Shown here: positions 14,390 to 32,611 of the stretch, in pieces | Numbering within the stretch: position 1 is the first letter of the stretch | Layout of the letters: every line of letters starts with the position of its first letter | The notes under the pieces: model-generated | What the model saw: the letters and a program-made list of their open reading frames with translations, nothing else | The model's database searches: none | Told to the model about the DNA's origin: nothing | From: a virus | Taxonomy: Duplodnaviria > Caudoviricetes | Length of the DNA: 64,000 nt | Virus record (IMG/VR): IMGVR_UViG_3300050821_001527 | Span: 32,001 to 96,000 of that record | Direction: 5' to 3' (one strand) | Program-made: the position numbers and the translations under genes

Positions 14390-14393
14390 TAAA

Positions 14394-14407
14394 GTGTAAA
14401 CAATAGT
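14394..14407 (+). promoter_or_regulatory. GTGTAA late-promoter-like motif
   Basis: GTGTAAACAATAGT directly before ATG 14408. Confidence 0.55.
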
Positions 14408-14923: not shown

Positions 14924-15382
14924 ATGTCATTGGTATCAGATGCAGAAGCGGCAATTTTGTCCGGTAATTTTCTTGAGGTTTTTCAAGCCTTCTCGAAAAA
15001 CAGGACGATTACTGTCCATAAGGAGCCGCTAAAGACCTTCGTTTCAACACCCGACCCGAACACAGCCCTGTTTGGATTCGGAGAAACGCAGCAACAGGCC
15101 GTCTATAACTATACCCCTCAAAATCAATCCTTCAATGCCATCGTTCGTTACGGGGCGAGTTACCGCACGAACATGTCCTCAGAACCAACCGAAGCGGACA
15201 TCTTCTTCTCCAAGGGGATGGTTCAAATCATGGTTCAGAGAGACTGTCACGATTACATCGTGCAGGACAAAACTTTGAAGATTGAACTGGACGGCAGGGC
15301 TTGGATGGTGGTCGGGGAACCAAGAGCCAAGAAATTTTTGCTGAATGATTACTATGTTTTCTACCTGCAAAACCTACAATAA
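14924..15382 (+). CDS. Putative head closure protein
   Basis: 152 aa, beta-rich C-terminus (KIELDGRAWMVVGEP...YYVFYL); called from synteny. Confidence 0.5.
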   Translation: MSLVSDAEAAILSGNFLEVFQAFSKNRTITVHKEPLKTFVSTPDPNTALFGFGETQQQAVYNYTPQNQSFNAIVRYGASYRTNMSSEPTEADIFFSKGMVQIMVQRDCHDYIVQDKTLKIELDGRAWMVVGEPRAKKFLLNDYYVFYLQNLQ

Positions 15383-15384
15383 TC

Positions 15385-15990
15385 ATGCTGACGGTTACAG
15401 TAAAGGCAGACAGGAACGCCATACTTCAGAAGATTCTGAGCAGCAGAGCCTTCGTGGAGAAGGGATGGGTCGCGGCAGAGAAAGTAGCCCGCAAGAGGTT
15501 TAATCAGCAGAAGGAGTTGTTCTTTAGAGATTTTGACGAGCATCCGGTCACTCAGGAAATCAAGGCGGGGCCGGAAATCGAAGGGAATCCAAGCGGGCTG
15601 TTGGGCGGGGAAGGGAACCTGTTCAGCTTCTTCGGATTCAATGAAGGTGAAGACCCCATTGGGGACGTAAAGTTGTTTATGGAGTCCTTGTTCGACATAG
15701 AACGCGGCTCATACCGCTCAAAACAATGGACGTTCAGAGTCAAAATGCCGGACGAGGAACAGGTAGCGGCATACGTGGTCGGAAAATACGGCGCGGACTA
15801 TACAAGCGAAAGCTGGATAGACGGGGTGGAAAAGGGATACTCCGGTTTGAACTATTATCTCAGGTTCAGGGACAAGGGACGCTCTGGCGGTGGTATTGAA
15901 GTGTCGTCGCCGGTAAGAGAACTGAATTTCTCGACTACGCCGTATCTGTCGGAAATGGTGAAGAATTTTAGACGTAACATACAAACATGA
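15385..15990 (+). CDS. Putative neck/tail-completion protein
   Basis: 201 aa, between head closure and tail terminator; C-terminal FSTTPYLSEMV resembles HK97 gp10-like proteins. Confidence 0.45.
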   Translation: MLTVTVKADRNAILQKILSSRAFVEKGWVAAEKVARKRFNQQKELFFRDFDEHPVTQEIKAGPEIEGNPSGLLGGEGNLFSFFGFNEGEDPIGDVKLFMESLFDIERGSYRSKQWTFRVKMPDEEQVAAYVVGKYGADYTSESWIDGVEKGYSGLNYYLRFRDKGRSGGGIEVSSPVRELNFSTTPYLSEMVKNFRRNIQT

Positions 15991-16823
15991 ATGCCCAATT
16001 AGATGCAAGAATTTTAAGCAGCCTCGCTCTCTATCTTGATTACAAGTTATTGAAGCAGGCACAGGCTTACACCAATACATCGGGGGCATTGTATTCCATC
16101 ACTTCGGAGATTGTCGGGATGTATGCGTATTCCACTCCCCACAAGCAGTTGGTCAATGACACATCCATAACTGGCGCAAACGTGATGACCGGGGTATGGC
16201 TGGACGGAAATTTCATTGTCCCCGGACAGAGCGGCCTGTATGGAATCAATCATTACGAGGGCACCGTTTATTTCAACCACAAGATTACCAGCCCGGAAAC
16301 GAGGCTATCGGGAGTCTATGCCTTCAAGGACTTCTCTGTCAAAATCACCGACCAAACGGATTACAAGCTCATTTTCGGAAACAAATACATGAGCAACGAC
16401 CTCTACGCCCAAACCCCAACCGGCTTGGAGGAAGATGTTGAAATTTACCCGATTATCTACATCCGTCCAACGACCATTGAAAACAAGCCGTTCGGACTGG
16501 CCGGACTGGACGACAATACGATGCTTGCCCGCGCTGTTATCATTTCTGATGATATGTATGACGCTATCGGGGCGGCAAATGTAATGAAAAACCTGAATTT
16601 GAAGGTTTTGCCGGTATATTCCAGCCTACCGTTCAACCAAATGGGGCTATACACCGGGGGTGCGCCTTACAACTTTGAGCAACTGCCCCAGCACGGGGAA
16701 ACCCCGATTATCTGGAAGGTTAAGACCAGTTCCCTGACTCCAAAGGGGGACGAACTCAATTTGCTGAACATTAAGACCATGTTTGCTGATTTTGAGGTCA
16801 GAACATTGGCCACCCATCCTTAA
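15987..16823 (+). CDS. Putative tail terminator
   Basis: 278 aa, directly before the tail tube gene; YPIIYI motif; ATGA overlap with the upstream gene. Confidence 0.45.
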   Translation: MNAQLDARILSSLALYLDYKLLKQAQAYTNTSGALYSITSEIVGMYAYSTPHKQLVNDTSITGANVMTGVWLDGNFIVPGQSGLYGINHYEGTVYFNHKITSPETRLSGVYAFKDFSVKITDQTDYKLIFGNKYMSNDLYAQTPTGLEEDVEIYPIIYIRPTTIENKPFGLAGLDDNTMLARAVIISDDMYDAIGAANVMKNLNLKVLPVYSSLPFNQMGLYTGGAPYNFEQLPQHGETPIIWKVKTSSLTPKGDELNLLNIKTMFADFEVRTLATHP

Positions 16824-16850
16824 TTTTGCTGTTCACATTTCCGTCTAACA

Positions 16851-16862
16851 GTTGTAATATAG
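16851..16862 (+). promoter_or_regulatory. GTTGTAA variant of the late-promoter-like motif
   Basis: GTTGTAATATAG in the intergenic gap before the tail tube gene. Confidence 0.45.
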
Positions 16863-16886
16863 AATGAATAAGGAACACATCATTTT

Positions 16887-17834
16887 ATGTCAAAACCGAC
16901 AAGAACACTTTACGCAACGCAGAACGCGGTCATTTTCCCTTCTGGAAGCAATGTTGACCCGGCGTTCTATTGTCTGCCCATCAACAGCGTTAGCTTGGAT
17001 GTCACGAATCCAATCGAAAACGTTCTGGTATTCGGCACATTGGGCGCTGCCGCCCGTGTTCAGAAGGAGCCTTCCAAGACGAGAATGTCAATCAAGTCTT
17101 ACCTCGTCGCCGGAAGCGTTTCTGGCGGTTTGGGAGCATCTTTGCCGTTCGACGCTACCGCTGTCGGAGTCCTTACCGGAAATTCCATTACGGCGCAGGC
17201 TGCGGAAGTTCGCCTCGAACCTTACGGTTTCACGGGTTACGGCATCTTGACGAAGCTCGACCTTGACGCTTCCACGAACAATTTCGTTACCCTCGACCTG
17301 ACGTTTGAAGGACTTGGAACCCCGAACTACGGCGGAATCAATACCGCTGGCGTTGGCAACACAAGCTATGCCGGTCAGATTCCTGTTATTACGGGTGTCC
17401 AGCCGGTCACTTCCGACCTCGTTGCTGCCGGTGTTATCTCCACGGATTCCTTGTTCACGGGAGCCATCGGAACCAACATTACTGGTTTGGGCAATGCTGC
17501 CTGCGTCAATTCCGCCAAGTTCTCCTTGGACATTCCTACGGACACAATCATGTGTCTCGGTTCTCAGATTACCGGCAACCAGCTTGCGGTTCAGTCTGGA
17601 AACGTTATGATTGCCAAGCCTCCGTTCAAGGCAACCCTTGTCGTCGAAGGAACTGCGGCCACGGCCTGTGACGCGGTTGACTTCGGAACCATCGTTGTTT
17701 CGCTCCCGACCCCTCGCCTTATCTCGAACACTGTCAACCAGTCTGTCGGTGCGGCTGGCGTTACTTACAACTACACTGTCGAAGACATCACGGCTACCTT
17801 CAGTCCTTCGACCATCACCGGAGTCGCAATCTAA
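16887..17834 (+). CDS. Major tail tube protein
   Basis: 315 aa, T/S/G/A/V-rich, MCP-like codon bias, followed by a terminator, then chaperones and TMP. Confidence 0.7.
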   Translation: MSKPTRTLYATQNAVIFPSGSNVDPAFYCLPINSVSLDVTNPIENVLVFGTLGAAARVQKEPSKTRMSIKSYLVAGSVSGGLGASLPFDATAVGVLTGNSITAQAAEVRLEPYGFTGYGILTKLDLDASTNNFVTLDLTFEGLGTPNYGGINTAGVGNTSYAGQIPVITGVQPVTSDLVAAGVISTDSLFTGAIGTNITGLGNAACVNSAKFSLDIPTDTIMCLGSQITGNQLAVQSGNVMIAKPPFKATLVVEGTAATACDAVDFGTIVVSLPTPRLISNTVNQSVGAAGVTYNYTVEDITATFSPSTITGVAI

Positions 17835-17854
17835 CCCTCCTAATCGTGTTTCAA

Positions 17855-17894
17855 GGGGAAGCTCCCAATCCGGGGGCTTCCCTTTTTTGTTTTT
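17855..17894 (+). terminator. Rho-independent terminator after the tail tube gene
   Basis: GGGGAAGCTCCC-aatcc-GGGGGCTTCCCT hairpin followed by T runs. Confidence 0.85.
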
Positions 17895-17924
17895 CAGGTG
17901 TATTTCCTTTTAGGAATAAGGCGT

Positions 17925-18281
17925 ATGGTTTCACCTGAGAACAACATTATCTATCTGCAAACATCCAAGGAGATAACCTCCTTGTTCAAAAGCTTCTTGG
18001 AAGACCTCGAAAACCAGAAGAAAGACCACGACTTGATGATGGCCAAGGTCGCTGAGAAATGCGGCCAAGACTACGCCAACTCCATCAACTTCTTCTCGGA
18101 CGAGAAATACAACCACATACGCAAGAGAGTCCTAGACCACGGAAACGAAACCTCCCGCCAACTATCCGCGTTCCTAGACTACTTCGATTTCCAGATTAAC
18201 ACCCAAAAGCTTGATGAAGCCGTCAAGAACAAGGTGACCCACAAAAAAATCATCATTGCCGGACAGATTGGCGTAGAATAA
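17925..18281 (+). CDS. Hypothetical protein
   Basis: 118 aa from ATG 17925 (the track start at 17898 is a GTG inside the GTGTATTT motif). Confidence 0.6.
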   Translation: MVSPENNIIYLQTSKEITSLFKSFLEDLENQKKDHDLMMAKVAEKCGQDYANSINFFSDEKYNHIRKRVLDHGNETSRQLSAFLDYFDFQINTQKLDEAVKNKVTHKKIIIAGQIGVE

Positions 18282-18297
18282 TCAGGCGTAAGGCACT

Positions 18298-19065
18298 ATG
18301 AGCAAGAAATTTATCTACGAATTTACCGTTGACAAGATTGTCGAAAAAGACGTTCCCGTCGAACGCAAGCCGGAAGACGACCCTAGCGTTACCGCAACGC
18401 GCAAGGAGAAAGTCGCGGAGCCTGTCAAATTCCGCATCCTCAAGCCGACCCGCAAACTTTACGACTTGGCCGAAATCTTCTTGGCCAAAACAATTTCCGA
18501 TTACGTCCGTGAAGGCATTATGCCCATCACTTTGGTCGCCAAACGATTCGGTGATGACGGCGGCGTCCTTACTACCAAGGAGCAGGAATACATCGTTGAA
18601 CTGCAAAAACGCATTGACGAAAATCAGAAGAAACTGATTGCCCTTTCCGCACCGAAGAAGGAAGGAGAACCGGAACCCGAAACCATTTCCCCGCAGCAAC
18701 GCGCCGACCTGTTCGTGGATATGATGAAGACTCAGGTGGAGATTGACAACATCCGAAATTCCTACCTGTCTCTTTACGAAAATACAGCCGAAATGAAGGC
18801 TCGTAAGAAGACGATTGAATGGTGGATTACGCAATTAAGCTACCACGGCGAGGGTGAGAAGGAATATTTCCCGCAGACCTCCTTCTTCGAGCGTTACAAG
18901 GCATACGTTGATACCTTGGACGGAGACAGTGATTTCGATAAGAAAGTCGTGTCGAAGTTTTCCTACCTGATAAGCACTTGGTTCTCCAACATCAACACCG
19001 CGCTTACCGAAGAAGACTTCAAAGCCGCCGACAAGCACTTTGAAGAAAATGTAGCCGATGAGTGA
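18298..19065 (+). CDS. Putative tail assembly chaperone 1
   Basis: 255 aa, charged and helical, between tail tube and TMP. Confidence 0.5.
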   Translation: MSKKFIYEFTVDKIVEKDVPVERKPEDDPSVTATRKEKVAEPVKFRILKPTRKLYDLAEIFLAKTISDYVREGIMPITLVAKRFGDDGGVLTTKEQEYIVELQKRIDENQKKLIALSAPKKEGEPEPETISPQQRADLFVDMMKTQVEIDNIRNSYLSLYENTAEMKARKKTIEWWITQLSYHGEGEKEYFPQTSFFERYKAYVDTLDGDSDFDKKVVSKFSYLISTWFSNINTALTEEDFKAADKHFEENVADE

Positions 19066-19949
19066 AACCATTTTCCCCATTAACCGAGATAGAGAATCTC
19101 AAGCTGATATATCACGATATTCTCAATGGTTATTCGCTTGACGACAGCGGTGTTTATGTCAAGCACTTCTCCGAACAGTCCTACGCCCGAGTCCTAGAAA
19201 GAAAGAGGACGCTCGCCCTGTCCTTTAGGGTCGAAGGGCTTCCGACCAATGACGAGCGCGAGAAGGAAATGCTCGAACAGGGTCTATGGACTCAGGATAA
19301 GGAGGACAGGATTGAGCAGTTGAAGGTGAACATCGCCGACAACGAGAAATATTCCCAAGGCATCATCCCCTCCCAAAAGGGCGCGATTACAGCCATACTG
19401 GACAACCTCAAAACAGAACTCGCTTCCTTGGTAAATGACAAGCATGATATTGTCGGCCCCACATGCGAGAAATTCGCAGACCGTGAAGTTGAGAACTTTT
19501 TCCTGTTAGAACTGTTTTACAGGGACAGCGGACTGGCTCATAAATATTTCTCCGAGGACGAGTTTGCGGACTTGGACTATCAAGAGCTTGCCAAGTATAA
19601 GAAAATCCTCAATGCCGCCCTGACTAAGATAGGCGAGGAACATATCAGGCAGCTAAGTTGCCTGCCATTCTTTCTTAACTCCCTTCAAGTTGTAAAAGAA
19701 CGCCCGGAAAAATTCTTCGGCAAGCCGATTTCCGAGTTGACATTCCACCAGCATAACTTGCTCATGGGAGGACTCAGAAGCCACAACATCCACTCCCAAG
19801 CCGAAGGCTCGCCGCCTAGTTTGGCCGATTCCACGATTCAAGGGCTGGTGGAGTGGTATGACAAGCAGCACTCCATTATCCTCGGCAAGAACAGCAAGGG
19901 AGTCGCCACCAGCGGCCTTAGCATCACCAATACTGACGTGGTGCGATAA
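19062..19949 (+). CDS. Putative tail assembly chaperone 2
   Basis: 295 aa; GTGA overlap with the upstream gene; directly before TMP. Confidence 0.5.
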   Translation: MKPFSPLTEIENLKLIYHDILNGYSLDDSGVYVKHFSEQSYARVLERKRTLALSFRVEGLPTNDEREKEMLEQGLWTQDKEDRIEQLKVNIADNEKYSQGIIPSQKGAITAILDNLKTELASLVNDKHDIVGPTCEKFADREVENFFLLELFYRDSGLAHKYFSEDEFADLDYQELAKYKKILNAALTKIGEEHIRQLSCLPFFLNSLQVVKERPEKFFGKPISELTFHQHNLLMGGLRSHNIHSQAEGSPPSLADSTIQGLVEWYDKQHSIILGKNSKGVATSGLSITNTDVVR

Positions 19950-19991: not shown

Positions 19992-22900
19992 ATGGCAGCA
20001 CCCGAGATTCTATTGGCGGTAGGTGGGGATTTAACAGCGTTGAACAACGCTATTGATTCCGCATTGAGTCGTCCAAGGAACTTCAGGGGCATCAACGCCA
20101 ATTCCTTTACCGAACCTCTCGGTAGAATCACTGGAAAAGCCTCCGAATTCTCCAAGTCTATGGAGGCGTCCAACGCCCGTGTTTTGGCGTTCGGTGCTTC
20201 TGCCGGTGCGATTTACGCCGTTCACAAGTCCTTCGAGACTCTCCTGTCCTCGACGATTGAAGTCCAGAAGTCAATGAACCTTTTGGGCACGTTGTTCAAC
20301 GCGAGCAACGCCACGCTCAAGAACTTCTCCAATAGCCTGTTCGACGTGGCCAATCTGACCGGGCAGAGTTTCAGGTCTGCCACGGAAGCCGCCAACACGT
20401 TCGCCCGTCAGGGCTTGAGCGCGGCGGAAACGCTTCGCAGAACCAGAGACGCCCTGATTCTTGCTCGTATCGCCGGTATGGACTTCGGAGATTCGGCGAG
20501 GGTCATTACCACGGCCATTAACTCGTTCAACAAGGAAGCCCTAACAAGCACCGAAATCATCAACGCCTTGAGCGCGGCGGAAACTCACTTCTCCGTCAAC
20601 TCGTCCGACTTGGCTCAAGCCATTTCCCGTGTAGGAACGTCTGCTGAAAACGCGAACGTCACCCTGAACGAAACCATTTCCTTAATTACTAGCGCGGCCC
20701 AAATCACTGGCCGTTCCGGTTCGGTAATCGGTAACTCGTTCAAATCCATCTTCACCCGTCTCGAACGCCCGAAGGTTTTGGAAGACTTACAGCAAATCGG
20801 TGTTACAACCAGAGACGCATCTGGTAATGTTCTTCCGTTGGTTCAGGTTCTCAAGAACTTGGCATCTACCTACGACTTGCTGACCCCAAGCCAGAAGTCA
20901 TTCATCACGGAAGCTGTTGGTGGTGTCTATCAAATTAACACGTTGAAAGCCGTCCTTGGTGACTTGGGAAGCGGCTTTAGTGTCTATGACCGCGTTCTCA
21001 AGACGGTTGAAGGTTCGACTTCATCCGTCATTGACCGTAACAACCAACTCAACGAAACAATTTCCGCGAAGCTCAATGCCACCCTCAACAACCTAATCCA
21101 AGCCGGTTCCAAGGTTGGAAACTTGGTTATTGCACCTTCGCTCGGCAAGGGAGCCGATTTGGGCGCGAACTGGATGAAGGGTATTTCGGAAGCCATTGAT
21201 TCAAAGTCCTTGGGCGGAGATTTGGCGCGTGGGCTGCTCAAGGGTCTTGGAGACGTTATCAGCGGGCCGGGAGTCCAGTTTATTACGTTTGCCATGCTCA
21301 AGTTGTTCCAGAACCTTGCGACGTTCGCGGCCAAGTCTGTTGGAGAATTCACCGGGGTTTCCACAAAGGCGAAGGAACTTGAACTTACTCAGGTTCAGGT
21401 CTTGCAGCAGTTGCTCCAACAGCCAAAGGTCTTGGAGTCCATCAAGACTGGGACGATGACGGTTGACCAAGCCGCCAAGCAAGTTTTCAGAGATATTCAG
21501 GCGCAGAATTCCGCCTTGGAAGCCCAGTTGGGACTTGCGCGTTTGATTGCCAAAACGGGCATGACTGGCGGCGTGTCTGTTCAGGGAACCAAGTATAGGG
21601 CCGCTTCGGGTTATGTTCCGAGTTTCTTTGACGAGTTCGCTATGGAAGAAGCCCACGCCAAGTCCTTGGGTGCGGCGGCTCCTAGAGCGCACTTCGGCAA
21701 GGGAACCATTGGTGGCCGCAAATTTATTATGAACTCTCAGGAGACTGAGATTCCTAATTTTGGCTCCAACGGAGACTCGGCGGTTATACCGAACTACTCG
21801 AAGGGCTTTGTTCCTAATCTCGCTGTTGGCCGCGAAGACATCTTGACATCCAGAGATAAGCTTAGAAAGCACACCGGCAGAGTCGCCAGCTTGTTTGTCG
21901 CTGAAAAGGGTGCGAGGGAATACGGCGAATTCTACAACGTATTCCGCTACTCCGATAAGGAAAAGGTCAACTTCCTGCCGGAAATCGAAAAGTTCGTATC
22001 AGAAAGAACGGACAAGGCACCAATTCCTACCGGGGGAAGGGGAGCTATGTCTGCTTTGGCGGGCGTCATCTTTGAAGCTCTAATCAGAAAAAAGGCCCAA
22101 ATCGGAAACGTCGAAGACGCTAACTTCGACATTCCAAGTGTTAGGGCTGTCAAGAAAAACCTGACTCCATTTTTCGGAGATTCCGTTGATGGCGGGTTGC
22201 TGGATGCCGGTGACTTCAAAATTTCCGACTCGGTTCGCGCCAGAAAGAGCCTAGAAAAGAAAATCATCAACAGACTCGATTCCATGCCTAACATGAAGGC
22301 GGAAGGTCACTACCCTGATTCCGCTTACGGGCCATACGGAAAGACAATCACCAACGCTTCTTCCCAAGGTCTTCCGGGTATGCTCGAAGGCGCGGAATTC
22401 ATCGGCAGCGGAGTCCAAGGGGTTGTATATAAATACACTCTGCCAAGCGGCAAACAGAAGATTGTCAAAATTCCTAGAAAGCAGGAAGATGTTGGCCGTC
22501 TGCATGACGATGTAAGAAAGCAGAGGGCGTTCTATGGCTCCTCCCCTGACCTTGGAGGATATGTTAATCCGAACAAGCCATCCCTTTACCTAAACTACGG
22601 AGACTACAAAGAAGGCAGAGGAGCCGGTATTTCCGAATTGGAAATGCTGACAGGTGAAAAAAGGGTCAACGGCCTGCACAATCAGCAGGAGAGCAGCCTA
22701 CATCAGTCGTTCATGGGACGCCTAAAGGGTAATCCTAACGCGGAAGCCATCGCAAGTAGGGCTACCCGCATGACTCTATCAGATGTGAAGCGTAACTTCT
22801 CCAAGTATAACAAGGTTTACAGCAAACAGGGCAGGGGATTTTACTATGGCCGTAATGGGGCGGTAGGAAACTATACCCTCAATAATCTTCATCCAGCCAT

Positions 22901-25900
22901 CACTCCAAGCGGATTGATTTTCAAGGACTATGTTGAATCCAACGGCCAGAATTTAATTAAGGGACACTTGCTTGATGGGGTCGCCAAGGCGTATTCAAAC
23001 GTAGGTGGATACCCGGACATGATTCGCGGTATCAGGGAGAGTTACGTCAACCCGAACAATGGTCAAGTTTCCGTTTACGACTTTGCTGACGGATATATTC
23101 CAAGGTCTGACCTTTACAGTCTGCCTTGGAGACAGCGTGTGCGCGGCCATGACCGCCCGGTTCCTCCTACTGAAACCGCCGACAGATTCAGGGAGTATGA
23201 AACATATCTCTTGCAGGCCGGTTTGCCGAAACTGGGCTTTGAAGGAGTCCACGACCTAAACTCGGTTTTGGGAACAAATTCCAGAGCGGACTTCTTTGCC
23301 CGCCGAAGCGGAGTCCCTCACATCGTTGACGCCAAGGGTGGCTACAATGACGCCCAGCCTAGCGACATTGCTGCCAAGGAAGAAAGCTTCGCCATGCTCA
23401 AGCAGAATCCGAAGTTCTTGTCATTTCTCCGCAGCCAAGGCATCGTAAACCCGGACGAAGTTCGTGAAGCCATCGTGTTCGGAAACATGGGACACGGGCA
23501 GCGCAAGAAGCTGGCGGAAACTGGCAAGTTGATGATGGCCAATGGCTTCATGCCGAATCTTGCGGGTCTTTCATTCCAGCAATCCTTCGATAAGGAGTTC
23601 GGCATCACTAAACTCACCGGGACAATGGGTGGGAAAACAGTCGGTGACATTGAATACAGCGGCAACGATGAAAAGGAAATCGAAGGCTTTGAAATCAACA
23701 AGGCATTTCGTGGAAAGGGACTGGCCAAGAAGTTCTACAAGGCTTTGGGCAGAGGTCGCGTATCGGGAACCCTTCTTCCTCAATTCGGCAATAATGGAAA
23801 TGCGTTCTTCCCTCAGTTGTCCCGCGCTAGAATGGCAAAGTCTGCAACGGTGCAGGGGTTTGACGGCTCGGAAATGACTGTTGCCCAATTCGAGAAGCTT
23901 GTCCAGATGAACTCTGGTAATCAGGGCTTCTGGAATGATAACTCTTTTAACTTAATCTCTCACCACGCTCAGGGGTTCGTCCCGAACTTGGTTGACCCCG
24001 GATATATTTCCTCCACCTTGGAAAGAATCAAGAATGGAACCAGTGGTTTCTCTGACGCGGAGAAGGCGATGTTCCTAAAGAAGTTCGCTGGAAAAACCGG
24101 AGCCTTGGGTTCTCCGTTTGGTGTGGATATTTTGGGAATTGATGATTTGCCGCCGATGGTTCCTTTCTGGATTCAGAACGCAGCACGTAAGAAGTATGGG
24201 AAGGATGCCTATGTCAGTGTCCAGCCGCATTTGGCTGAAAAACTTCGTGCCGCCATAAAGCAAGACCCAAGCATTGTTCATAATTTCAGTGCATTGGAGG
24301 GGTTGTTCAGCGGCGGCATCGCGGCGACCTCGTTCGCGCAAGGATTCGTTCCGAACTTCTCCAACCCGCTCACTTCCGCCATCAATAGGGAAAGAGCGGC
24401 TGGATACAGTTCTTCCCAAATCCGCGTTGGGCATGATTCCGCATTGGTTAGCGCGATGAACCCGGATGGAGTTGGTGTTTATAACTCTACAGAAGGCTCT
24501 CTCTCGAACGGTATTGGCCTTGCTCGTCGCGCCGGTATTGACCCTAAGACAAAGGGCATGGCCAAGGGTAACATCCCTAACTTCGCCGATGTTGGAACTT
24601 CGATGGCTTTGGGAGGAATGCAGTTCTTGTTGGCTATTCCTCTTATCAGCGGTGCATTGCAGAAAATGACTTCTCCGTCGAAGCAGGCTGCGGAAGCTAT
24701 GGAGAAGCTTGAGGGAAGAATCACGAAGCTTACAAAGGTAAGTGCCCAATACGACAGTCGCTTGGAAAAGACCAATCAGTCTTACGAAATCACGATGAAG
24801 GCTATTGATGGTCTTTATCAGAAAGCGGCTAAGACGGGATACCTGAGTGGGGCCGAAGTATCCGCGCTAACAATGCTCGAAGGTAAGGCGGCGAAGGAAG
24901 AAGGGGCCATGAAGTTGTATGCCTCTGGAAAATCCAGAGCGGAATTGCAAAAGACCACTTCCCTAAGCGAGTTAATCTCAGAGCAGAAGAAAACTACGTT
25001 CGGACAAAAACTCTTTGGTGGAGAAAATTACGAAAAGACCTTCGCTGGCAAAGCCCAAGGATTCGGCTTGGTAGCGGGCATGGGTGCGGGAATAGGGATG
25101 AATGTCGCTGGTGAAATGATTGGCGGCGACAAGGGTAAGGCTCTTGGCGAATTTGGTTCAACCATTCAGACGGCAGGGCAAGTTATGGCTACAATCCCCG
25201 GCCCAGCAGGGCTTGTAGCGGGTGCCCTTGTGGTGATGAAAGGAGCGATTGATTTCGCTGATAAGGCCGCATGGGGATTCGCAGAGAAGATTAAGGACGC
25301 CGCGCAGGAGAAATTGACCGGCATTGATAACATGGATGCTGCGTCAAACGGACTTGCCCAAGCGATGTCGAATTACCAAACTTTACTTGACGACTCCCAC
25401 GCCACGAATACCGCATTATTGAAGGCTCAAGAGAAATACAAGACAGCCTTGAATAATTTCGTCGCAAGCGGATTTTCCAAAGACGACATTACGAAGGTCA
25501 CCGGTGCTGGAACAATGTCCGAACGACAAGCCGCGCTCCAAGAGCTTAACGAAAAAAATGCCAGAGAGAAGGAGAAGCAGACGACGATTTCCCAATCTGC
25601 GGATTTGGCAGAATCCATTGCAATCAATACTAAGAAGGATAACGTATTCAATCAATCTCTTTTTTCTTGGGGAGGAATGGGGAATTTTATATCGGGAAGG
25701 AAGGATATAGACGGCATTGAATCTTTGTGGAGCGGCAAAGCCGGGAAAAGTATCTTTGATGAGAAGTTCTCCAAAGAAGGTGGTGGCAATAACCTCCTCA
25801 CGAAGATGACTCAAGAGGCTATGGATAGCGGGGATTCCAAAGGATATATCGCGGATATGAAGGAGAAGGGCGTCCTTGATGACCAATCCGCTGGAATTCT

Positions 25901-27467
25901 ATCCAGAAACATACAAGCAACCAAAAAATATGTCACCGCTGCCGAAGAAATGGGCAAAATTATAGACCAGAACGTCGGGCAGCAGAGGGCGCAGCAACAG
26001 TCAATGGAACGCTACGCCCAAGGTCTAAAGCAACTCCAAAACGAATTGAGGACATTCGCGGGTGACGCGTTCTTCAAGCAGATGGACAATATTTCCGAGA
26101 GAATGAAAAGCGGAGCGAACGCTCGTCACGGTGATGCGGAAATTGCCGGGGCTTTGGCTTTAAGCTTGACAAAGGGCGGTGGGGTAAACAGAAACGGCAT
26201 CATTATGAACTCGGACGAGAAGGCTCTGACCGAGATTGATAACACGATGGCTAAAATTGGGGCCGACATGGATGTCGCGCTATCTGGCGTCAACGCCAAT
26301 TTCACCAAGGGTTTGACGGACTTGGTTAAGGGGGAATTCGCGGGGGCCAAGGGTGGGGCTAATGGAAACAATCAAGCTACATTCACAAACGAGCAATACA
26401 ACACTTCCGCTCAAATCATCAATCAGATTACCCAAGACCTTTTCAAGAATGGAAAGCTTAACGGCAGCGCGGAACAGACTCGCGGAACAATCGCCAACGC
26501 CATAGATGCAAGAGGCAGGGTGCTTCAAGGTGCTGACCCCGGCATCAGCGCGTTGTTGAGACAGTCCGCGAACTCATTGGTTGGTTCCAAGGGGCAAGAG
26601 CTAATCCAACAGCAGTTGCTCGAAACACAGAAGGTATCCACCGAATATTTGGAGCAGACTGCCAAGGCTACAATCGAGTCCAAGGACAAGTTGCAGCAGA
26701 TGATTAACCAGAGAATCCTTGCTGCGGGCGGGGGTGTAAGCTCGTTCACTCAGGATTTCGGAGCTTCCTATAGGAGAAGCCTCAGACAAGACATCAGCGA
26801 GTCTCGCTCTGGTGTCCCAGAAATGGCCGGTGTCGGCGCAATCAACTTCCTCAAGAAAGCCAAAAACGACTTGGGTATTGGCGAAGGGGACGCTTTGTTC
26901 ACGGACATGAAGGCCAAGGCTATTACCGGAGTCGAATCCGAACTCAAGAAAACCTATGGGGTTTACGCAAGACAGGGCTATAATACTCCGTCGGATGCAG
27001 GCATCCATGATATTGCCAGCAGACAAGTAGAGAACGAAGTCGGCGGGGCGTCGGTGAACGAACTGATGCAAAAGGGCAACGACTTGCAGGATAAGGCGAA
27101 TGGCTACTTGGTTCAGATTTTGGAAAGAAACGGCATGGCTAGTGACCAAACCAGTCGCATAAAGCTTCAAAATGACTTGTTCACCGGCAAGGGTATCACG
27201 TCGTTCCAGAACCAGTCGAACGTGGCGATAGACTCTCAGGTTACGAGGTCTATTGATTACGCATCCATGCAAATGATGATGGTGGCTGGCAAGATTGAAA
27301 AGGCGTCGGAAAATCTCAAGTCTCTCAAGGGAGAAATTGACATTACGATTACGCAAATTAAAGAAAACGACCCAGCGGGCAAGCGCACGACAAGACAGAG
27401 CGCGATTCTCGAATCGGTAAAATCCGCTCAGACTAAGGCACCGTCTGACGTATATCAGAACATGTAA
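19992..27467 (+). CDS. Tape measure protein (TP901-type core) with an embedded multi-domain cassette
   Basis: 2491 aa. The N-terminal core (LFDVANLTGQS...FARQGL...LAQAISRVG...GSVIGNSFKSIFTRL) is typical of TP901-family TMPs. Long helical regions flank about 1000 aa of globular modules. Confidence 0.9.
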   Translation: MAAPEILLAVGGDLTALNNAIDSALSRPRNFRGINANSFTEPLGRITGKASEFSKSMEASNARVLAFGASAGAIYAVHKSFETLLSSTIEVQKSMNLLGTLFNASNATLKNFSNSLFDVANLTGQSFRSATEAANTFARQGLSAAETLRRTRDALILARIAGMDFGDSARVITTAINSFNKEALTSTEIINALSAAETHFSVNSSDLAQAISRVGTSAENANVTLNETISLITSAAQITGRSGSVIGNSFKSIFTRLERPKVLEDLQQIGVTTRDASGNVLPLVQVLKNLASTYDLLTPSQKSFITEAVGGVYQINTLKAVLGDLGSGFSVYDRVLKTVEGSTSSVIDRNNQLNETISAKLNATLNNLIQAGSKVGNLVIAPSLGKGADLGANWMKGISEAIDSKSLGGDLARGLLKGLGDVISGPGVQFITFAMLKLFQNLATFAAKSVGEFTGVSTKAKELELTQVQVLQQLLQQPKVLESIKTGTMTVDQAAKQVFRDIQAQNSALEAQLGLARLIAKTGMTGGVSVQGTKYRAASGYVPSFFDEFAMEEAHAKSLGAAAPRAHFGKGTIGGRKFIMNSQETEIPNFGSNGDSAVIPNYSKGFVPNLAVGREDILTSRDKLRKHTGRVASLFVAEKGAREYGEFYNVFRYSDKEKVNFLPEIEKFVSERTDKAPIPTGGRGAMSALAGVIFEALIRKKAQIGNVEDANFDIPSVRAVKKNLTPFFGDSVDGGLLDAGDFKISDSVRARKSLEKKIINRLDSMPNMKAEGHYPDSAYGPYGKTITNASSQGLPGMLEGAEFIGSGVQGVVYKYTLPSGKQKIVKIPRKQEDVGRLHDDVRKQRAFYGSSPDLGGYVNPNKPSLYLNYGDYKEGRGAGISELEMLTGEKRVNGLHNQQESSLHQSFMGRLKGNPNAEAIASRATRMTLSDVKRNFSKYNKVYSKQGRGFYYGRNGAVGNYTLNNLHPAITPSGLIFKDYVESNGQNLIKGHLLDGVAKAYSNVGGYPDMIRGIRESYVNPNNGQVSVYDFADGYIPRSDLYSLPWRQRVRGHDRPVPPTETADRFREYETYLLQAGLPKLGFEGVHDLNSVLGTNSRADFFARRSGVPHIVDAKGGYNDAQPSDIAAKEESFAMLKQNPKFLSFLRSQGIVNPDEVREAIVFGNMGHGQRKKLAETGKLMMANGFMPNLAGLSFQQSFDKEFGITKLTGTMGGKTVGDIEYSGNDEKEIEGFEINKAFRGKGLAKKFYKALGRGRVSGTLLPQFGNNGNAFFPQLSRARMAKSATVQGFDGSEMTVAQFEKLVQMNSGNQGFWNDNSFNLISHHAQGFVPNLVDPGYISSTLERIKNGTSGFSDAEKAMFLKKFAGKTGALGSPFGVDILGIDDLPPMVPFWIQNAARKKYGKDAYVSVQPHLAEKLRAAIKQDPSIVHNFSALEGLFSGGIAATSFAQGFVPNFSNPLTSAINRERAAGYSSSQIRVGHDSALVSAMNPDGVGVYNSTEGSLSNGIGLARRAGIDPKTKGMAKGNIPNFADVGTSMALGGMQFLLAIPLISGALQKMTSPSKQAAEAMEKLEGRITKLTKVSAQYDSRLEKTNQSYEITMKAIDGLYQKAAKTGYLSGAEVSALTMLEGKAAKEEGAMKLYASGKSRAELQKTTSLSELISEQKKTTFGQKLFGGENYEKTFAGKAQGFGLVAGMGAGIGMNVAGEMIGGDKGKALGEFGSTIQTAGQVMATIPGPAGLVAGALVVMKGAIDFADKAAWGFAEKIKDAAQEKLTGIDNMDAASNGLAQAMSNYQTLLDDSHATNTALLKAQEKYKTALNNFVASGFSKDDITKVTGAGTMSERQAALQELNEKNAREKEKQTTISQSADLAESIAINTKKDNVFNQSLFSWGGMGNFISGRKDIDGIESLWSGKAGKSIFDEKFSKEGGGNNLLTKMTQEAMDSGDSKGYIADMKEKGVLDDQSAGILSRNIQATKKYVTAAEEMGKIIDQNVGQQRAQQQSMERYAQGLKQLQNELRTFAGDAFFKQMDNISERMKSGANARHGDAEIAGALALSLTKGGGVNRNGIIMNSDEKALTEIDNTMAKIGADMDVALSGVNANFTKGLTDLVKGEFAGAKGGANGNNQATFTNEQYNTSAQIINQITQDLFKNGKLNGSAEQTRGTIANAIDARGRVLQGADPGISALLRQSANSLVGSKGQELIQQQLLETQKVSTEYLEQTAKATIESKDKLQQMINQRILAAGGGVSSFTQDFGASYRRSLRQDISESRSGVPEMAGVGAINFLKKAKNDLGIGEGDALFTDMKAKAITGVESELKKTYGVYARQGYNTPSDAGIHDIASRQVENEVGGASVNELMQKGNDLQDKANGYLVQILERNGMASDQTSRIKLQNDLFTGKGITSFQNQSNVAIDSQVTRSIDYASMQMMMVAGKIEKASENLKSLKGEIDITITQIKENDPAGKRTTRQSAILESVKSAQTKAPSDVYQNM
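21600..24584 (+). repeat. Eight dispersed copies of the peptide motif [AS]xG[FYHN]xP inside the TMP
   Basis: AASGYVPSF 21600, YSKGFVPNL 21795, KAEGHYPDS 22296, FADGYIPRS 23082, MANGFMPNL 23535, HAQGFVPNL 23964, FAQGFVPNF 24333, MAKGNIPNF 24558. Confidence 0.85.
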
Positions 27468-27469: not shown

Positions 27470-29131
27470 ATGTCGAACGTAGTAAATAGGGAAGGTTTAA
27501 ACCTAGAACTACTCGGATACACTTCAAAAAGGGAGTATTTCGGGGGCGAATCCGTCGTGTTCAGAAGGGTCGAAGCCTACGTATATGATTACGTCACCAC
27601 TGACCTTGCCAATTACGCCAGCGGACTAAGCCCGTTGATAGCTTCCGGTATCAGCGGACAGATAGCCAATTTCTCGGGTGATGTAACTATTCGCGGACTG
27701 GATATTCCAAATTCCTATGACTCATTGGAAGAACAAATCCGCACAGCCCGATATAAGATTACTGTTGAAGTCAGAACGTCCATCGGCTCGGGGGACTCGA
27801 ATTATTACACTGGGCTGAATTACATCACTCAATCCGGGTTTGCGGCTCTTGATGGGTTTAGCGAAAGTTTCGATTTCGAGAATGCGGAAGACGCCCAAAA
27901 GCTCAACCACTCCATCAGCTTCTCCCTAAGAACCGGGGACATGGGATTCGCGCAAGCCTTGGCTTCTGGACTCATGCAGGAATCTGAGCCGCAGAATCTC
28001 GGAATCGGAGTTTTGTCTGGATACCTTGGGCAATACAATGATGCTAGTTCAGAGAACTACTACACGGAAGCTTATGATACTTTCAAGAACACGTATTCCT
28101 TCAAGAAGACCAAAAACCTTTACAAGATTACCGGGGTTGGTTTTACCTTCGATACCAACACCCGATACGAGTTCAATGATGGCATCAGCACCGTCATAGA
28201 CGAAATCAAAGTCAGGGGGAAACAGAATTTTACTCAGGCTTCTGACGGACTTAATGCCCTCATTGGTTCTTCCGAGTCAAGATGCGCTGATGTCTATGGG
28301 GCGTATCAGGGATTCTCCAATCTGGATGGAGCCGGGACTCTATTCTCTACGCCTTTGAAAAAGGTTCTCAAGTATAACCAGCAGGCTCTCGCTGCCGAAG
28401 CCTCGTTGACCTTTACGGACAATCCTCTCTACGCCAACGACTACAAACTAGACGAGGTTATGAATTTGACGGTTGACCAAAACGGTATTGTCAAGGTCAC
28501 TGATGACTATACCATGACCCTGCTGGATTTCGTGGACTCGGACATGGCTTCCACACATAAGGACGAGTTTAATAACGCCACGAGGTCTGACTTCAGCCAA
28601 ACCCAGTCTAATAAATTTTACGCAAGCTTTCTATATGGGCGTTCCCTGTATCCTGTCGGGCTGACCAAGAAACTGCCTTTGAGAAAAAGGGTTTTCACAG
28701 CGAATTACGAATATTCTGATGACCCGAGATATGGAGTAACTTTGACTTCCATTAGCGGGGCCACGAAAACGTTCCCGAACGTGGATATGAAGTTGACGGA
28801 AACTGCACCGAAGGATTCTCTGACTGAATACAAGGTCATCAACAAGCCTGAAACTTTGGTGAACTATGCCTATCAGCAGGTTCCCGGTTCCAAAACAATG
28901 TCAATCACCGCCATACGCACAAGGCCGGATGGCAACCAGTTAGTGTCACTGGATGTCCCGGTCACGGAAGTCCAGTGCTTGTATGCCACGGCGTTAAACA
29001 AAATCAGTCAGACTTTTGAGAACTTTAATGGCCTGAACTATTTTTTATCGAACGTGGTCGTCAACCTGAATTCGGAAAATAAGTTGGAACTGAACGCGAC
29101 GGTGAGCTACACTAAGAAGAAGTATGTCTAA
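27470..29131 (+). CDS. Tail-tip/distal tail structural protein
   Basis: 553 aa directly after the TMP; repeated beta-strand pattern typical of tail hub proteins. Confidence 0.45.
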   Translation: MSNVVNREGLNLELLGYTSKREYFGGESVVFRRVEAYVYDYVTTDLANYASGLSPLIASGISGQIANFSGDVTIRGLDIPNSYDSLEEQIRTARYKITVEVRTSIGSGDSNYYTGLNYITQSGFAALDGFSESFDFENAEDAQKLNHSISFSLRTGDMGFAQALASGLMQESEPQNLGIGVLSGYLGQYNDASSENYYTEAYDTFKNTYSFKKTKNLYKITGVGFTFDTNTRYEFNDGISTVIDEIKVRGKQNFTQASDGLNALIGSSESRCADVYGAYQGFSNLDGAGTLFSTPLKKVLKYNQQALAAEASLTFTDNPLYANDYKLDEVMNLTVDQNGIVKVTDDYTMTLLDFVDSDMASTHKDEFNNATRSDFSQTQSNKFYASFLYGRSLYPVGLTKKLPLRKRVFTANYEYSDDPRYGVTLTSISGATKTFPNVDMKLTETAPKDSLTEYKVINKPETLVNYAYQQVPGSKTMSITAIRTRPDGNQLVSLDVPVTEVQCLYATALNKISQTFENFNGLNYFLSNVVVNLNSENKLELNATVSYTKKKYV

Positions 29132-30752
29132 GGGAAACGTCCAAGTCATCTATAATGGCAACGTGATTTCGCCCACTCCGTTCGTGAGCAGGGTGGAAAA
29201 CGCGATTGACTATGGGCATCGCTGGGGCGTGTCGGACGCCATTACGCTCAAAGGTCTGTATCCGACCAGCGGCTTAATTAGCGGTGTGATTCCCCAATTC
29301 CTAAACCTGTTCTCAGGAGACTTCGCCAGATTCTCAGTTATAGACACGGGAGAGCATGTCACGGTCTTGGACTACCCGCACGTCATTCTTGAGGAAATTT
29401 CTTTTGACTCGAACCATTTCTTTCCAAACACCTATGTCCCATACACGGTGAAGCTGAAGAATATCAATGTCCCAAGCGGTGTTACCGAACCCGTAAACGA
29501 ATATTCGTTCGTTCAAAACGAAGACGGAACCGTTACTGTAAACCACAGGGTTTCCGCCAAAGGTGTTGTAACGAGCGACTCTTTTGATTCGGCGTTACAG
29601 AATGCGGTAACATTTGTTTCGGCTTTTACGGGATTTCTACCATTCAATCCGGTGTTTGTAAGTTTTGGTTCTGGTGTTCTGCTTTCCCAGTCCGAATCTT
29701 TGGATAGACTTACATCTGTTTACTCCGTGGCGGAAGTCTTCAAGTATAATTCGGGAGAAAGCCTTCCTTATGTTTACACTCACAGTTTGGATATAGACGA
29801 ATCGCCGGATTCGGACTATGTGACTATGAGCCTGAAATACAATCGCCAAGGTTCGTCAATCACGTCAAATTTGGAAGCCTTGAGGGTCGGGCTTGAGGGG
29901 TTTGATGTTGTTGGATTTCTTTCGTCACAATACGGAATCGGGAACGCCGACTGCTATATCAACAACCTGAATGTTGTTGAATCTTCCGGCAAAAACAACA
30001 TCCAGATTAACGCGAGCATCGTATCCGGGGTCGGCGATGAATTCAACGGGTTTTTCGATTTCGACTTGGATATGAGATGGGATAGGGTGATGGATGTAAA
30101 GCAGTTTTCTTTAAATGGAAAATTCATCAGCAAGGCTCCAATCTCTTTGAGGAAGACTTTCCTTAACACGTTCAAGACAAACGTTACCACCGCCTATGGT
30201 GATTATCGTAACTACGTCTATTCCTTGATTACGGGCGAGAGTCCTAACATGGGCGTTTCTCTGAGAAGTTTAAACCCGATTCCTACATCCCTCAGTATCA
30301 ACGAGAACACGGGACTTGCAGAATTGTCCATCACGGCCACGTTCAATGACAAGGACTTCTTGGATGGGATTGGCGAGTCGTCCTTCAACGCGAGCTTTGA
30401 TGTCCCGAAAAACATCTACGAATTTAAGCCGTCCGCGAACATCGAAGGAAACTACATCATTCAGGACTTGCAGACCAACACCCGAGAAACCTTGAAACTC
30501 ACGTCGAGCTTCAAGACCACGGGAAACATGGATTACGCGCTTTCAAATGGGCCGCAAGTTCTCACCCAAATCGGAAATCAAGTATTGAGCAATTTCTTCC
30601 TGACCGAAAGCGGGTTCAGCACGGGGGTCTTTGACTTGGACATCAATGCCTCTTACCTAAACAGCGGCAGCGTATTCGGACTTGACACCAGATACTATCT
30701 TTCCTCGAACCCTAGCTCGATTAGGCCACCGGGATACAAGTATGGTCTGTAA
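29124..30752 (+). CDS. Tail-tip structural protein, similar to 27470-29131
   Basis: 542 aa; ITLKGL and YSVAEVF hub-like strands; overlaps the upstream gene by 8 nt. Confidence 0.45.
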   Translation: MSKGNVQVIYNGNVISPTPFVSRVENAIDYGHRWGVSDAITLKGLYPTSGLISGVIPQFLNLFSGDFARFSVIDTGEHVTVLDYPHVILEEISFDSNHFFPNTYVPYTVKLKNINVPSGVTEPVNEYSFVQNEDGTVTVNHRVSAKGVVTSDSFDSALQNAVTFVSAFTGFLPFNPVFVSFGSGVLLSQSESLDRLTSVYSVAEVFKYNSGESLPYVYTHSLDIDESPDSDYVTMSLKYNRQGSSITSNLEALRVGLEGFDVVGFLSSQYGIGNADCYINNLNVVESSGKNNIQINASIVSGVGDEFNGFFDFDLDMRWDRVMDVKQFSLNGKFISKAPISLRKTFLNTFKTNVTTAYGDYRNYVYSLITGESPNMGVSLRSLNPIPTSLSINENTGLAELSITATFNDKDFLDGIGESSFNASFDVPKNIYEFKPSANIEGNYIIQDLQTNTRETLKLTSSFKTTGNMDYALSNGPQVLTQIGNQVLSNFFLTESGFSTGVFDLDINASYLNSGSVFGLDTRYYLSSNPSSIRPPGYKYGL

Positions 30753-30764
30753 AGGGCCGAATGC

Positions 30765-30776
30765 GTGTAATATACT
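30765..30776 (+). promoter_or_regulatory. GTGTAA late-promoter-like motif
   Basis: GTGTAATATACT, 20 nt upstream of ATG 30791. Confidence 0.55.
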
Positions 30777-30790
30777 GAGAGGTTTGAGGC

Positions 30791-32608
30791 ATGAATTGTA
30801 GCGGTTTTCTACTTGGGATGAGCGGCAACGGTTTCCGAACAGGAAGCCTGCTGGCATATTATGATTTGACCGTGCCCGAAAGCCTGCTATATCCGAACCT
30901 CAAATTCGACCCGTCTTTCTCCTTCGTTGAGGCCGGTGAAGATGCTTTGGAAGATAATTCTGATGACGTAATCACAGATATTTCAGGGGATGCTATTGAG
31001 GTCGCGGCGGCGTTTTACATCAACCTAGATGCGGTTCCGGGCGTTATTCTCGGAACGATTCCAAATATCAGCGGCCAAATGTCCGTTCAAATCGGACGAG
31101 ACTTGGAACTCCAGAATCTTCATTGCCTTTTCGACTTTGACTTTAATGCCTGTAGCAATACCGGAGCTACCGAAGCCACCATTCTCTTGACTTCCAGACG
31201 AGAGCATAATGACACTTCCGGCTTCGTGTTCGGAATCAATTCAAGCAATCGCTTGTTCTTCGAGAATAATGGGAAAATCAGGACTCTCAACCAAGAACTC
31301 AGGGATAAAAACATTATTGGCTTGAGTATCGCCCAAAATCAATACGTCAATTTCGGGGTTTTTGACTTCACGACCAATTCGTTCGTAAGCGAAAGCCTGA
31401 CGAACCCATTATCCAAGAGTTTGGACGACCTTTTCCTGATTAGCTACCCAAGCGGCGACCATTCCGTATATTCCGGGGCAATGGGCAATCTTAACCATTT
31501 CGCCATCCTTGATGACGTGATTTTGGACAGGTATGACCTAGCCCTCTCTCTTTTCTGCACAAACGCCTCCACAATCGCCTATACGACCACGGGAAGGCTC
31601 ATCTCGGTAAATGGGGTAACGGGCGTCAACATCTATGAAAGCGGCGTGACGGGCTTCCAGACGTTTACTGGGGCCATCCTAAAAGAAGATAGCACGACGG
31701 TCACGGGTATCTACACTTTGGGGGTCAGCGGGTTGATTTTGACGGACACTCGTATTTTACCCATCGTCATTACTGGTGGAGCGGTAACTTTCACTTCATA
31801 CTCATCTGTTTTGGGGTATAATCAAAGCGAAATCAAGGGATATTCCCGCTTTGACGGTATTTTTGGTAATGATTTGAACGGTAGTCAAGTCGAAGTTTAC
31901 TACTACGACAAATTCCAGCCATATAAAAATATCAATTTATCGAATTTTATATTGCCAAACGTGGGAAATTCACTTCATCCAAATCTCTATGTAAATGGCC
32001 TTTTAGCCAGTTCCGGGGTTGATTATGACGTAGAAGACGGGGAAATCCTTGTCTTTAACGATAACTCTCTAGTAGAAACGTTGACCGTGAGCTACTCCGT
32101 GAACCCTGCGATTTCCATGTATTACACCGGACAATTTCCTGTAGATGGTGGTGGGGGTATTTGGGTATCGGCCTCGGGTGTATTGGTCGAAAATCAAGAC
32201 GTTTACCTGAATGGCCAGAAGCTTGTCAGAGGCATTGATTTCGAGCATGGGGTGTCTGGGACTTTGTTTAATTCGGGCGTTTTGGAAACTGGATGTGAGA
32301 TTGTTTTCATAGCTATGGATGACATACCAATTCAACAAGTGGCGCAATACAACTCCACGTCTTATTTGGTGACTGGCATTTGGGGATTTTCAGAACAGAT
32401 ATGGCTTAATGGAGTTTTGCAGACACGCGGGGAGGACTATTATTTGGTTCAACCCTGCACCCCTCCTGAATACTTTTTCTCAGCGAATAACACTCAGCTA
32501 GTCTATAATAATGACGGCTACTATCTGAATTTTGTTGACTTTCCGTTTTTGACGGATATTAACGGGGACATCATTTATGATGGCGACGGTTTCCCGATTA
32601 CGGTTTAA
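30791..32608 (+). CDS. Virion protein with a LamG/ConA-like domain and three xxNG..xGxD[YF] repeats
   Basis: LLAYYDL...FVFGINSSNRLFF...GNLNHFAIL (LamG-like); LYVNGLLASSGVDY, VYLNGQKLVRGIDF and IWLNGVLQTRGEDY repeats. Confidence 0.55.
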   Translation: MNCSGFLLGMSGNGFRTGSLLAYYDLTVPESLLYPNLKFDPSFSFVEAGEDALEDNSDDVITDISGDAIEVAAAFYINLDAVPGVILGTIPNISGQMSVQIGRDLELQNLHCLFDFDFNACSNTGATEATILLTSRREHNDTSGFVFGINSSNRLFFENNGKIRTLNQELRDKNIIGLSIAQNQYVNFGVFDFTTNSFVSESLTNPLSKSLDDLFLISYPSGDHSVYSGAMGNLNHFAILDDVILDRYDLALSLFCTNASTIAYTTTGRLISVNGVTGVNIYESGVTGFQTFTGAILKEDSTTVTGIYTLGVSGLILTDTRILPIVITGGAVTFTSYSSVLGYNQSEIKGYSRFDGIFGNDLNGSQVEVYYYDKFQPYKNINLSNFILPNVGNSLHPNLYVNGLLASSGVDYDVEDGEILVFNDNSLVETLTVSYSVNPAISMYYTGQFPVDGGGGIWVSASGVLVENQDVYLNGQKLVRGIDFEHGVSGTLFNSGVLETGCEIVFIAMDDIPIQQVAQYNSTSYLVTGIWGFSEQIWLNGVLQTRGEDYYLVQPCTPPEYFFSANNTQLVYNNDGYYLNFVDFPFLTDINGDIIYDGDGFPITV

Positions 32609-32611
32609 TTT

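Follow-up and report, generated by a model that had tools for sequence, protein, structure and literature searches.

The 64,000-nucleotide window analysed here covers positions 32,001 to 96,000 of the 202,882-bp IMG/VR virus record IMGVR_UViG_3300050821_001527 (Duplodnaviria; Caudoviricetes) and encodes, on its plus strand, the tape measure protein (TMP) of the virus as a single open reading frame (ORF) of 2491 amino acids (aa) at 19992-27467. The identity of this protein is secured by the Pfam hidden Markov model (HMM) PF10145 (PhageMin_Tail), which matches aa 123-307 with 108.7 bits against a cut-off of 33.2 (E 4.6e-31), and by ten TMP families of PHROG that match aa 23-570; its giant size and its position in the late structural block are those of a TMP as well. 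Embedded in the protein is a discrete, self-contained cassette, aa 778-1030 (22323-23081, plus strand), which has no detectable relative and whose start resembles the ATP-binding lobe of protein kinases. An initial annotation had placed a protein-kinase-like module at 22323-23090 inside a TMP. The motif strings that it quoted are all present in frame 1 of this interval on the plus strand, which corresponds to aa 778-1033 of the ORF, and the same PF10145 and PHROG matches bear out the placement of the stretch within a TMP.

The cassette is delimited by a recurrent peptide, G-[FY]-[VIM]-P, which we term a fence and which occurs seven times in this TMP (at aa 540, 605, 1034, 1185, 1328, 1451 and 1526). 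A set of 203 related TMPs was assembled from IMG/VR (loci L002-L044, L151-L230 and L261-L340); they share both conserved ends of the protein, with 32-64% identity over the N-terminal 540 aa, and every one of them carries the same fence, with the consensus [AK]-[AS]-x-G-[FY]-[IV]-P-N-[FY]-A across 342 distinct contexts. An iterated search with the first 43 relatives found aa 1-606 and the region from about aa 1430 onward to be constant and the sequence between them to be variable. Across the 203 related proteins the cassettes held between the fences, a stretch at 21600-24590 of the window here, differ both in number (1-6 or more) and in kind, and those cut at the fences from 123 relatives fall into 57 clusters, most of which are singletons.

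The kinase-like cassette sits on its own in the variable middle, between two fences that have decayed. The upstream fence, KAEGHYPDSAY (22296-22328, plus strand, aa 769-779), retains K(-3), A(-2), G, P and A(+6) of the consensus, H-Y replacing [FY][IV] and D-S replacing N-[FY]. The downstream fence is only partly decayed: FADGYIPRSD (23082-23111) follows the consensus at F-A-x-G-Y-I-P and has R in place of N and S in place of F. It is overlapped by a VYDFA string, the two together spanning 23073-23111 (plus strand, aa 1028-1040). The N-[FY] dipeptide is gone from both fences that flank the cassette, and should the fences serve for cutting or docking, the upstream cassette B1, the kinase-like cassette and the next one (aa 612-1181) would stay together as one three-domain unit.

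Homologues of the cassette could not be found. A phmmer search of 1.84 billion representative proteins with aa 612-1033 returned only the protein itself, and so did a word-index search, a tblastn search of 50,697 phage records and a pattern search of IMG/VR. When aa 778-1033 were compared by phmmer with the first 123 related TMPs, the best E-value was 0.067 and fell on an unrelated region, and the other 80 related TMPs gave no domain match at E < 0.05; in a database of this size a match of only 20 bits would already have counted. The G+C content of the cassette equals that of the rest of the TMP gene, so there is no sign of a recent foreign origin.

The resemblance to kinases lies in the N-terminal third of the cassette, with the Gly-rich loop hairpin FIGSGVQGVVYKY (22398-22436, plus strand, aa 803-815), within which G-S-G-V-Q-G occupies aa 805-810. 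Modelled strands flank this loop on both sides and the HMMs of the T7 gp0.7 family and of the Hanks-type kinases both align with it, as would be expected of the Gly-loop hairpin of the protein-kinase-like (PKL) fold. The candidate beta3 lysine belongs to I-V-K826 (22461-22469, plus strand, aa 824-826), which aligns with VIK of T7 gp0.7 and VAlK of Hanks-type kinases. K826 is located 16 residues past G810 in a predicted strand (model residues 45-51) and is followed by a helix, in an unconfident part of the model, that would carry E834, D835, D841 and D842. Further downstream SELEMLTG (22632-22655, plus strand, aa 881-888) is hinge-like by position and pattern only, in a region where the model is unconfident and without statistical support.

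The quality of this putative N-lobe motif was gauged against the ORFs of 44 related loci (226,566 aa in total) and against shuffles of the module. By itself G-x-G-x-x-G is common, occurring 113 times in the background and in 43% of module shuffles, and a loose loop-plus-Lys pattern is found in 2.3% of 250-aa stretches; these frequencies favour a chance look-alike. The strict pattern, h-x-G-x-G-x-x-G-x-h followed after 6-20 residues by h-h-K-h, argues the other way, as it occurs only once in the background, at this very site, and in 0.07% of module shuffles. Since the patterns were written after the site had been seen, these figures measure the quality of the motif and do not confirm it independently.

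Profile comparisons were made with alignments of the T7 gp0.7 family, of 20 Kinase-PolyVal domains from 15 of 401 Verrucomicrobiota genomes and of 30 Hanks-type kinases. The N-lobe HMM of the T7 gp0.7 family scores 4.4 bits on the module, which 4 of 1000 composition-matched shuffles equal, and the Hanks-type N-lobe HMM places klgrGgmgeVYkA...revAlKv on F-I-G-S-G-V-Q-G-V-V-Y-K-Y ... K-I-V-K-I (aa 803-827), a result likewise equalled by 4 of 1000 shuffles; both put the Gly loop and the Lys in register. With hhalign the best local match to the T7 family runs from the Gly loop through the Lys to K-x-E-D (module residues 23-58, T7 residues 69-102) with a P-value of 0.02. Judged by its sequence, the putatively ATP-binding, N-lobe-like signature is genuine and exceeds what chance would give.

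An AlphaFold2 model of the module, computed without homologues, has a mean predicted local distance difference test score (pLDDT) of 35.8. Its sole semi-confident region, model residues 21-50 (pLDDT 63-75), consists of a strand at 25-30, the Gly loop, a strand at 33-39 and the Lys-bearing strand at 45-51, and a helix at 54-67 lies just beyond it. The start as modelled fits the topology of a kinase N-lobe and not the strand-Gly-helix order of a Rossmann fold. A Foldseek search with this low-confidence model gave no match at E <= 0.001; of the first 50 rows, about 35 belong to kinases or aminoglycoside/macrolide phosphotransferases, including phosphorylase kinase, PAK4, IRAK4, PfPK5, CDK-like kinases and macrolide 2'-phosphotransferase, all of them local alignments of 28-69 columns with E-values of 0.1-0.5.

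Language-model neighbours in the ESM Atlas were derived independently of the motif list of the initial annotation. With aa 612-1033 as the query, the nearest Pfam-bearing clusters are those of Pkinase (on 12% of members), Phage_T7_kinase (17%) and Kinase-PolyVal (80%), at 0.90-0.91. With aa 778-1040, the Kinase-PolyVal cluster (the family being present on 80% of members) ranks third at 0.92 and is the closest of the named clusters in which one family holds a majority; it is accompanied by a second cluster at 0.92, 12% of whose members carry Pkinase, and by a 14-hit set with Phage_T7_kinase on 11% at 0.91. The named neighbours are only kinases, which speaks against a chance resemblance. The shared-feature counts of 154-159 fall below the 170 that are typical of true family members, so these neighbours are to be taken as a lead.

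The catalytic half of a kinase is much harder to locate. The initial annotation had assigned the catalytic loop to YPDM (23010-23021, plus strand, aa 1007-1010) and the metal-binding motif to VYDFA, and neither assignment holds. Almost all kinase-like enzymes have a metal-binding Asn five residues past the catalytic Asp, a position at which YPDM has Ile; the site gains no support from profiles and does not rise above chance. The overlap of DFA with the separator FADGYIP (aa 1031-1037) had been recognised correctly. In DFA, the A corresponds to the Ala that the fence consensus has at position -2 (53% of the 342 contexts), and the F stands at position -3, as it does in SFAQGFVPNF of this same TMP; the fence thus explains F-A and leaves only the Asp free. 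A Hanks-type catalytic-core HMM does put its D-F-G on N-G-Q-V-S-V-Y-D-F, a score equalled by 58 of 1000 shuffles and hence not above chance. Also claimed was an insert of about 100 aa between hinge and catalytic loop. A large insert is there, SELEMLTG and YPD being separated by 118 residues where PKA has about 45, and its size of about 75 aa is close to the figure claimed.

An alternative and more canonical candidate, found by pattern match, is F-K-D979-Y-V-E-S-N984 followed by L-L-D995-G-V (22920-22982, plus strand, aa 977-997). D979 and D995 are 16 residues apart, compared with 18 for the corresponding Asp residues in PKA and in T7 gp0.7, and when the C-terminal 193 aa are shuffled, 0.35% of the shuffles contain the composite h-x-D-x4-N-x(8-16)-h-h-D-[FGLYP] and 10% a looser form of it. 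Neither the position-specific scoring matrix (PSSM) nor the HMM of the Hanks-type kinases picked up the D979/N984 site, the best PSSM site in the TMP being an unrelated one at aa 496. The resemblance of this site, G-L-I-F-K-D-Y-V-E-S-N, to the Hanks-type G-x-V-H-R-D-I-K-P-x-N was thus a match by eye that the PSSM did not rank, and D979/N984 remains a candidate only. If the cassette is catalytic, D979/N984 together with D995 would be the best candidates for its active-site residues, and not YPD/DFA. The cassette ends 35 residues after D995, or immediately after D1030, and either end is compatible with the loss of a C-terminal subdomain, depending on which Asp is the real one.

Our preferred reading, to which we assign a probability of about 0.45, is that aa 778-1030 represent a very diverged, C-lobe-poor and possibly catalytic kinase-like domain. 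Some of what we counted in its favour is contextual. A GNAT-like cassette lies nearby in the same TMP, and kinases and GNATs co-occur in the polyvalent proteins described by Iyer et al. (2017, PMC5512222). Furthermore, a cassette common to the TMPs of two relatives, L033 and L261 (E 1.4e-62), shows a conserved Gly loop, Lys, D-x4-N and D-x-G; the motifs kept in both copies are G-x-G-Q-S-G, K-I-F-Y-K, F-E-R-E-V-V, D-x-Y-A-x-N and M-[YF]-D-T-x-G. A single-sequence AlphaFold2 model of the L033 copy has a pLDDT of 41.0 and no confident fold.

Other results weigh against the kinase reading. All the supporting tests lean on one motif of about 25 residues, whose patterns were defined with the site in view, and the Atlas counts are low, as described above. 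Pfam and PHROG searches with the module gave nothing relevant at E <= 10, only an irrelevant domain of unknown function (DUF), and at the same threshold there was no match among PDB sequences. The Pkinase (PF00069) and Kinase-PolyVal (PF18762) HMMs found nothing at E <= 10 across the whole 203-kb genome, and nothing on the records of four relatives. When the T7 and Kinase-PolyVal HMMs were run against 503,175 aa of six-frame ORFs, this TMP did not come near the top, and on the cassette itself the Kinase-PolyVal family HMM has no match, the corresponding hhalign comparison (P 0.27) being at chance level. Comparison by hhalign of the 57 cassette clusters with the T7 family, with Kinase-PolyVal and with this module gave no P-value under 0.009, a level that loses significance once multiple testing is taken into account. 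The cassette shared by L033 and L261 is no closer, with a pairwise z of 1-2 to the aa 778-1030 module and an HMM score at chance. Structural alignment by VIA-align reached a best Z of 3.4 with no enrichment of kinases. Finally, the C-terminal two thirds of the module give no signal with T7 or Hanks-type catalytic-core profiles, and the T7 C-terminal HMM has no match on it.

The strongest competing explanation, which we regard as quite possible, is that the cassette has an unrelated fold and function, as a spacer, an envelope-binding part or some other cargo of the TMP, and that the Gly loop and the Lys are a chance look-alike in a sequence rich in Gly, Lys and Asn. It accounts readily for the abundance of the loose patterns, for the failure of profile, HMM and structural searches to produce a significant kinase match and for a catalytic half that cannot be detected, and it gains further weight from the site having been picked out of about 21,000 codons scanned. 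It accounts poorly for a strict N-lobe pattern that is unique in the background, for two kinase-family HMMs that set the Gly loop and Lys in register at 4 in 1000 shuffles each, for language-model neighbours that are kinases wherever they are named, and for a canonical D-x4-N ... D-G that follows in the right order. As for the module originally proposed, its N-lobe-like start, comprising the Gly loop, the beta3 Lys and the acidic helix, is upheld by weak and concordant tests, and what falls away is the catalytic assignment to YPD and DFA.

A kinase-like fold that is catalytically dead appears distinctly unlikely; such a pseudokinase or nucleotide-binding scaffold would have a host protein as its partner or a role in TMP assembly. 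This reading would reconcile a good N-lobe signature with the want of an H/Y-R-D or D-F-G of normal quality, with a YPD that has no Asn and with a D979/N984/D995 set known from a pattern match; moreover, both flanking fences have lost N-[FY], so the module may never be freed. Pseudokinases usually lose the intact G-x-G-x-x-G and Lys first, however, and here both are intact, while D-x4-N and h-h-D-G are present with canonical spacing. The least probable alternative is a nucleotide-binding fold of some other kind that has a Gly-rich hairpin, be it ATP-grasp-like or that of another non-kinase ATPase. In its favour, what confidence the model offers is limited to the Gly-rich loop region, and the weak Foldseek rows include Nudix ADP-ribose pyrophosphatases; against it, no sequence or profile match to such families was obtained, and a Lys 16 residues past the loop followed by a helix is the arrangement of kinases.

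Among characterised systems, the kinase reading of the cassette invites comparison with T7 gp0.7 (PF27024), a minimal phage kinase that ends about 30-40 residues past its metal-binding Asp; the cassette would be similar if the assignment of D995 holds. L-G-N-G-H-F-S ... V-I-K-V-G-F-K-K-E-D of T7 gp0.7 aligns with I-G-S-G-V-Q-G ... I-V-K-I-P-R-K-Q-E-D of the cassette, whereas the catalytic F-D-M-H-S-G-N and I-T-D-P of the T7 protein have no scoring counterpart in it. The two also differ in their deployment, since T7 gp0.7 is an early product made after infection and not a virion protein, and the cassette lies in a TMP. The Hanks-type kinases (PF00069) align their Gly loop and V-A-x-K in register with the cassette, which has no H-R-D, no D-F-G of its own, no activation segment, no helices F-I and no match to the family HMM.

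A parallel in concept is Kinase-PolyVal (PF18762), a C-lobe-less Ser/Thr/Tyr-type kinase that resides in a giant protein co-delivered with DNA, near GNAT and nuclease domains. As read from the 20 members in 15 Verrucomicrobiota genomes, this family has G-x-E-H-x-V in place of G-x-G-x-x-G, followed by S-Q-P, D-x-H-x-x-N and P-I-D, none of which is found in the cassette. Giant polyvalent proteins, which are injected together with phage or plasmid DNA, recurrently carry kinases, GNATs and nucleases, and the paper that describes them does not mention TMPs (Iyer et al. 2017, PMC5512222). For an enzyme that is borne by a TMP and works in the cell there is only one experimental precedent: gp96 of phage P23-45, a TMP fused to a virion RNA polymerase that is active in the host before any phage gene is expressed (Chaban et al. 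2024, PMC10770324). In that case the enzyme is a different one, it is N-terminal and not a fenced internal cassette, and there is no sequence relation to the TMP studied here. In the literature searched we found no description of a kinase in a fenced TMP cassette.

On the kinase reading, the first 70 or so residues of the cassette would most likely constitute the ATP-binding N-lobe, made up of beta1, the Gly-rich loop, beta2, beta3 with Lys826 and an acidic helix, and the remainder would be a strongly diverged and shortened catalytic part that, like T7 gp0.7 and Kinase-PolyVal, stops shortly past the metal-binding Asp. Being built into the TMP, the cassette would reside in the virion and would be expelled along with the DNA, to reach the envelope or the cytoplasm of the cell; there it could bind ATP and phosphorylate proteins of the host ahead of phage gene expression. 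The timing of such a delivery, ahead of phage gene expression as the initial annotation had supposed, is an inference. That the cassette has a kinase-like fold of some kind, live or dead, seems to us slightly favoured; that it is an active kinase delivered into the host, which forms one part of the preferred reading, is doubtful.

The other cassettes of this TMP and of its relatives provide the setting. B1 (21825-22295, plus strand, aa 612-768), which adjoins the kinase-like cassette upstream, has no Pfam match and is weakly homologous to the common first variable cassette of the relatives (best E 1.7e-4 in the 123-TMP database). The GNAT-like cassette at 23565-23963 (aa 1192-1324) is so called from sub-threshold Pfam GNAT matches (E 0.001-0.006); homologous cassettes occur in the L211 and L212 TMPs (E 1e-11 and 4e-13). 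It is followed by cassette E (23994-24332, aa 1335-1447), which is homologous to parts of the L266 (E 8e-10) and L273 (E 7e-7) TMPs. The last cassette (24363-24560) is short, about 53-66 aa, and carries N-P-x-G-L-G-V-x-N ... E-P-N-G-L in the relatives; a first cassette of about 72 aa ends in H-G-F-D-P-Y. Each of these two kinds recurs in about 76-83 distinct cassettes from 123 relatives. In contrast to the cargo cassettes that they enclose, both seem to be constant components of the TMP.

Some relatives bear enzyme-like motifs of other types. H-E-x-x-H occurs in cassettes of L188 (aa 780-992, A-H-E-M-G-H) and L204 (aa 1082-1299, H-E-S-T-H), which by this motif are possible zincin-type peptidases, comparable to the processing peptidases proposed for polyvalent proteins; H-E-x-x-H is absent from the TMP studied here. 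In the TMP of L216, aa 1487-1721 contain the Walker-A sequence G-A-P-G-V-G-K-S-T and resemble a P-loop kinase-like cargo, a kind of kinase other than that suggested for aa 778-1030.

The surroundings of the TMP gene offer little by way of annotation. Fifteen large neighbouring ORFs (10950-19949 and 27470-35869) gave no credible Pfam or PHROG match at the thresholds applied, the sole row being irrelevant and far below threshold; the structural block of this phage is very distant from described phages. A search of 185,579 species genomes with the TMP returned a single match, to aa 6-208 at 40% identity, at the end of the 13-kb contig CBFHLR010000063.1 (L128) of a metagenome-assembled genome (MAG) of Coraliomargarita sp. 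(Verrucomicrobiota). This match is a weak pointer to a verrucomicrobial host, or it reflects a phage contig that was binned with the MAG.

In its fullest form, which we likewise hold to be doubtful, the scenario concerns a jumbo phage, possibly of Verrucomicrobiota, whose TMP carries a founder-less, C-lobe-less kinase that decayed fences join to two nuclease-like cassettes, with a GNAT-like cassette after it. Its tail would inject ready-made host-modifying enzymes before phage transcription, as a virion-borne counterpart of T7 gp0.7. Should the cassette prove not to be a kinase, it would be a useful reminder that, in phage proteins rich in Gly and Lys, short kinase motifs can be deceptive. If it is an active kinase, TMPs would be vehicles for host-modifying enzymes, beyond their roles as rulers and channel formers, and phage protein kinases would extend from early products such as T7 gp0.7 to pre-packaged cargo of the virion. 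A copy without relatives would then illustrate the speed at which such cargo diverges and the extent to which it escapes standard annotation.

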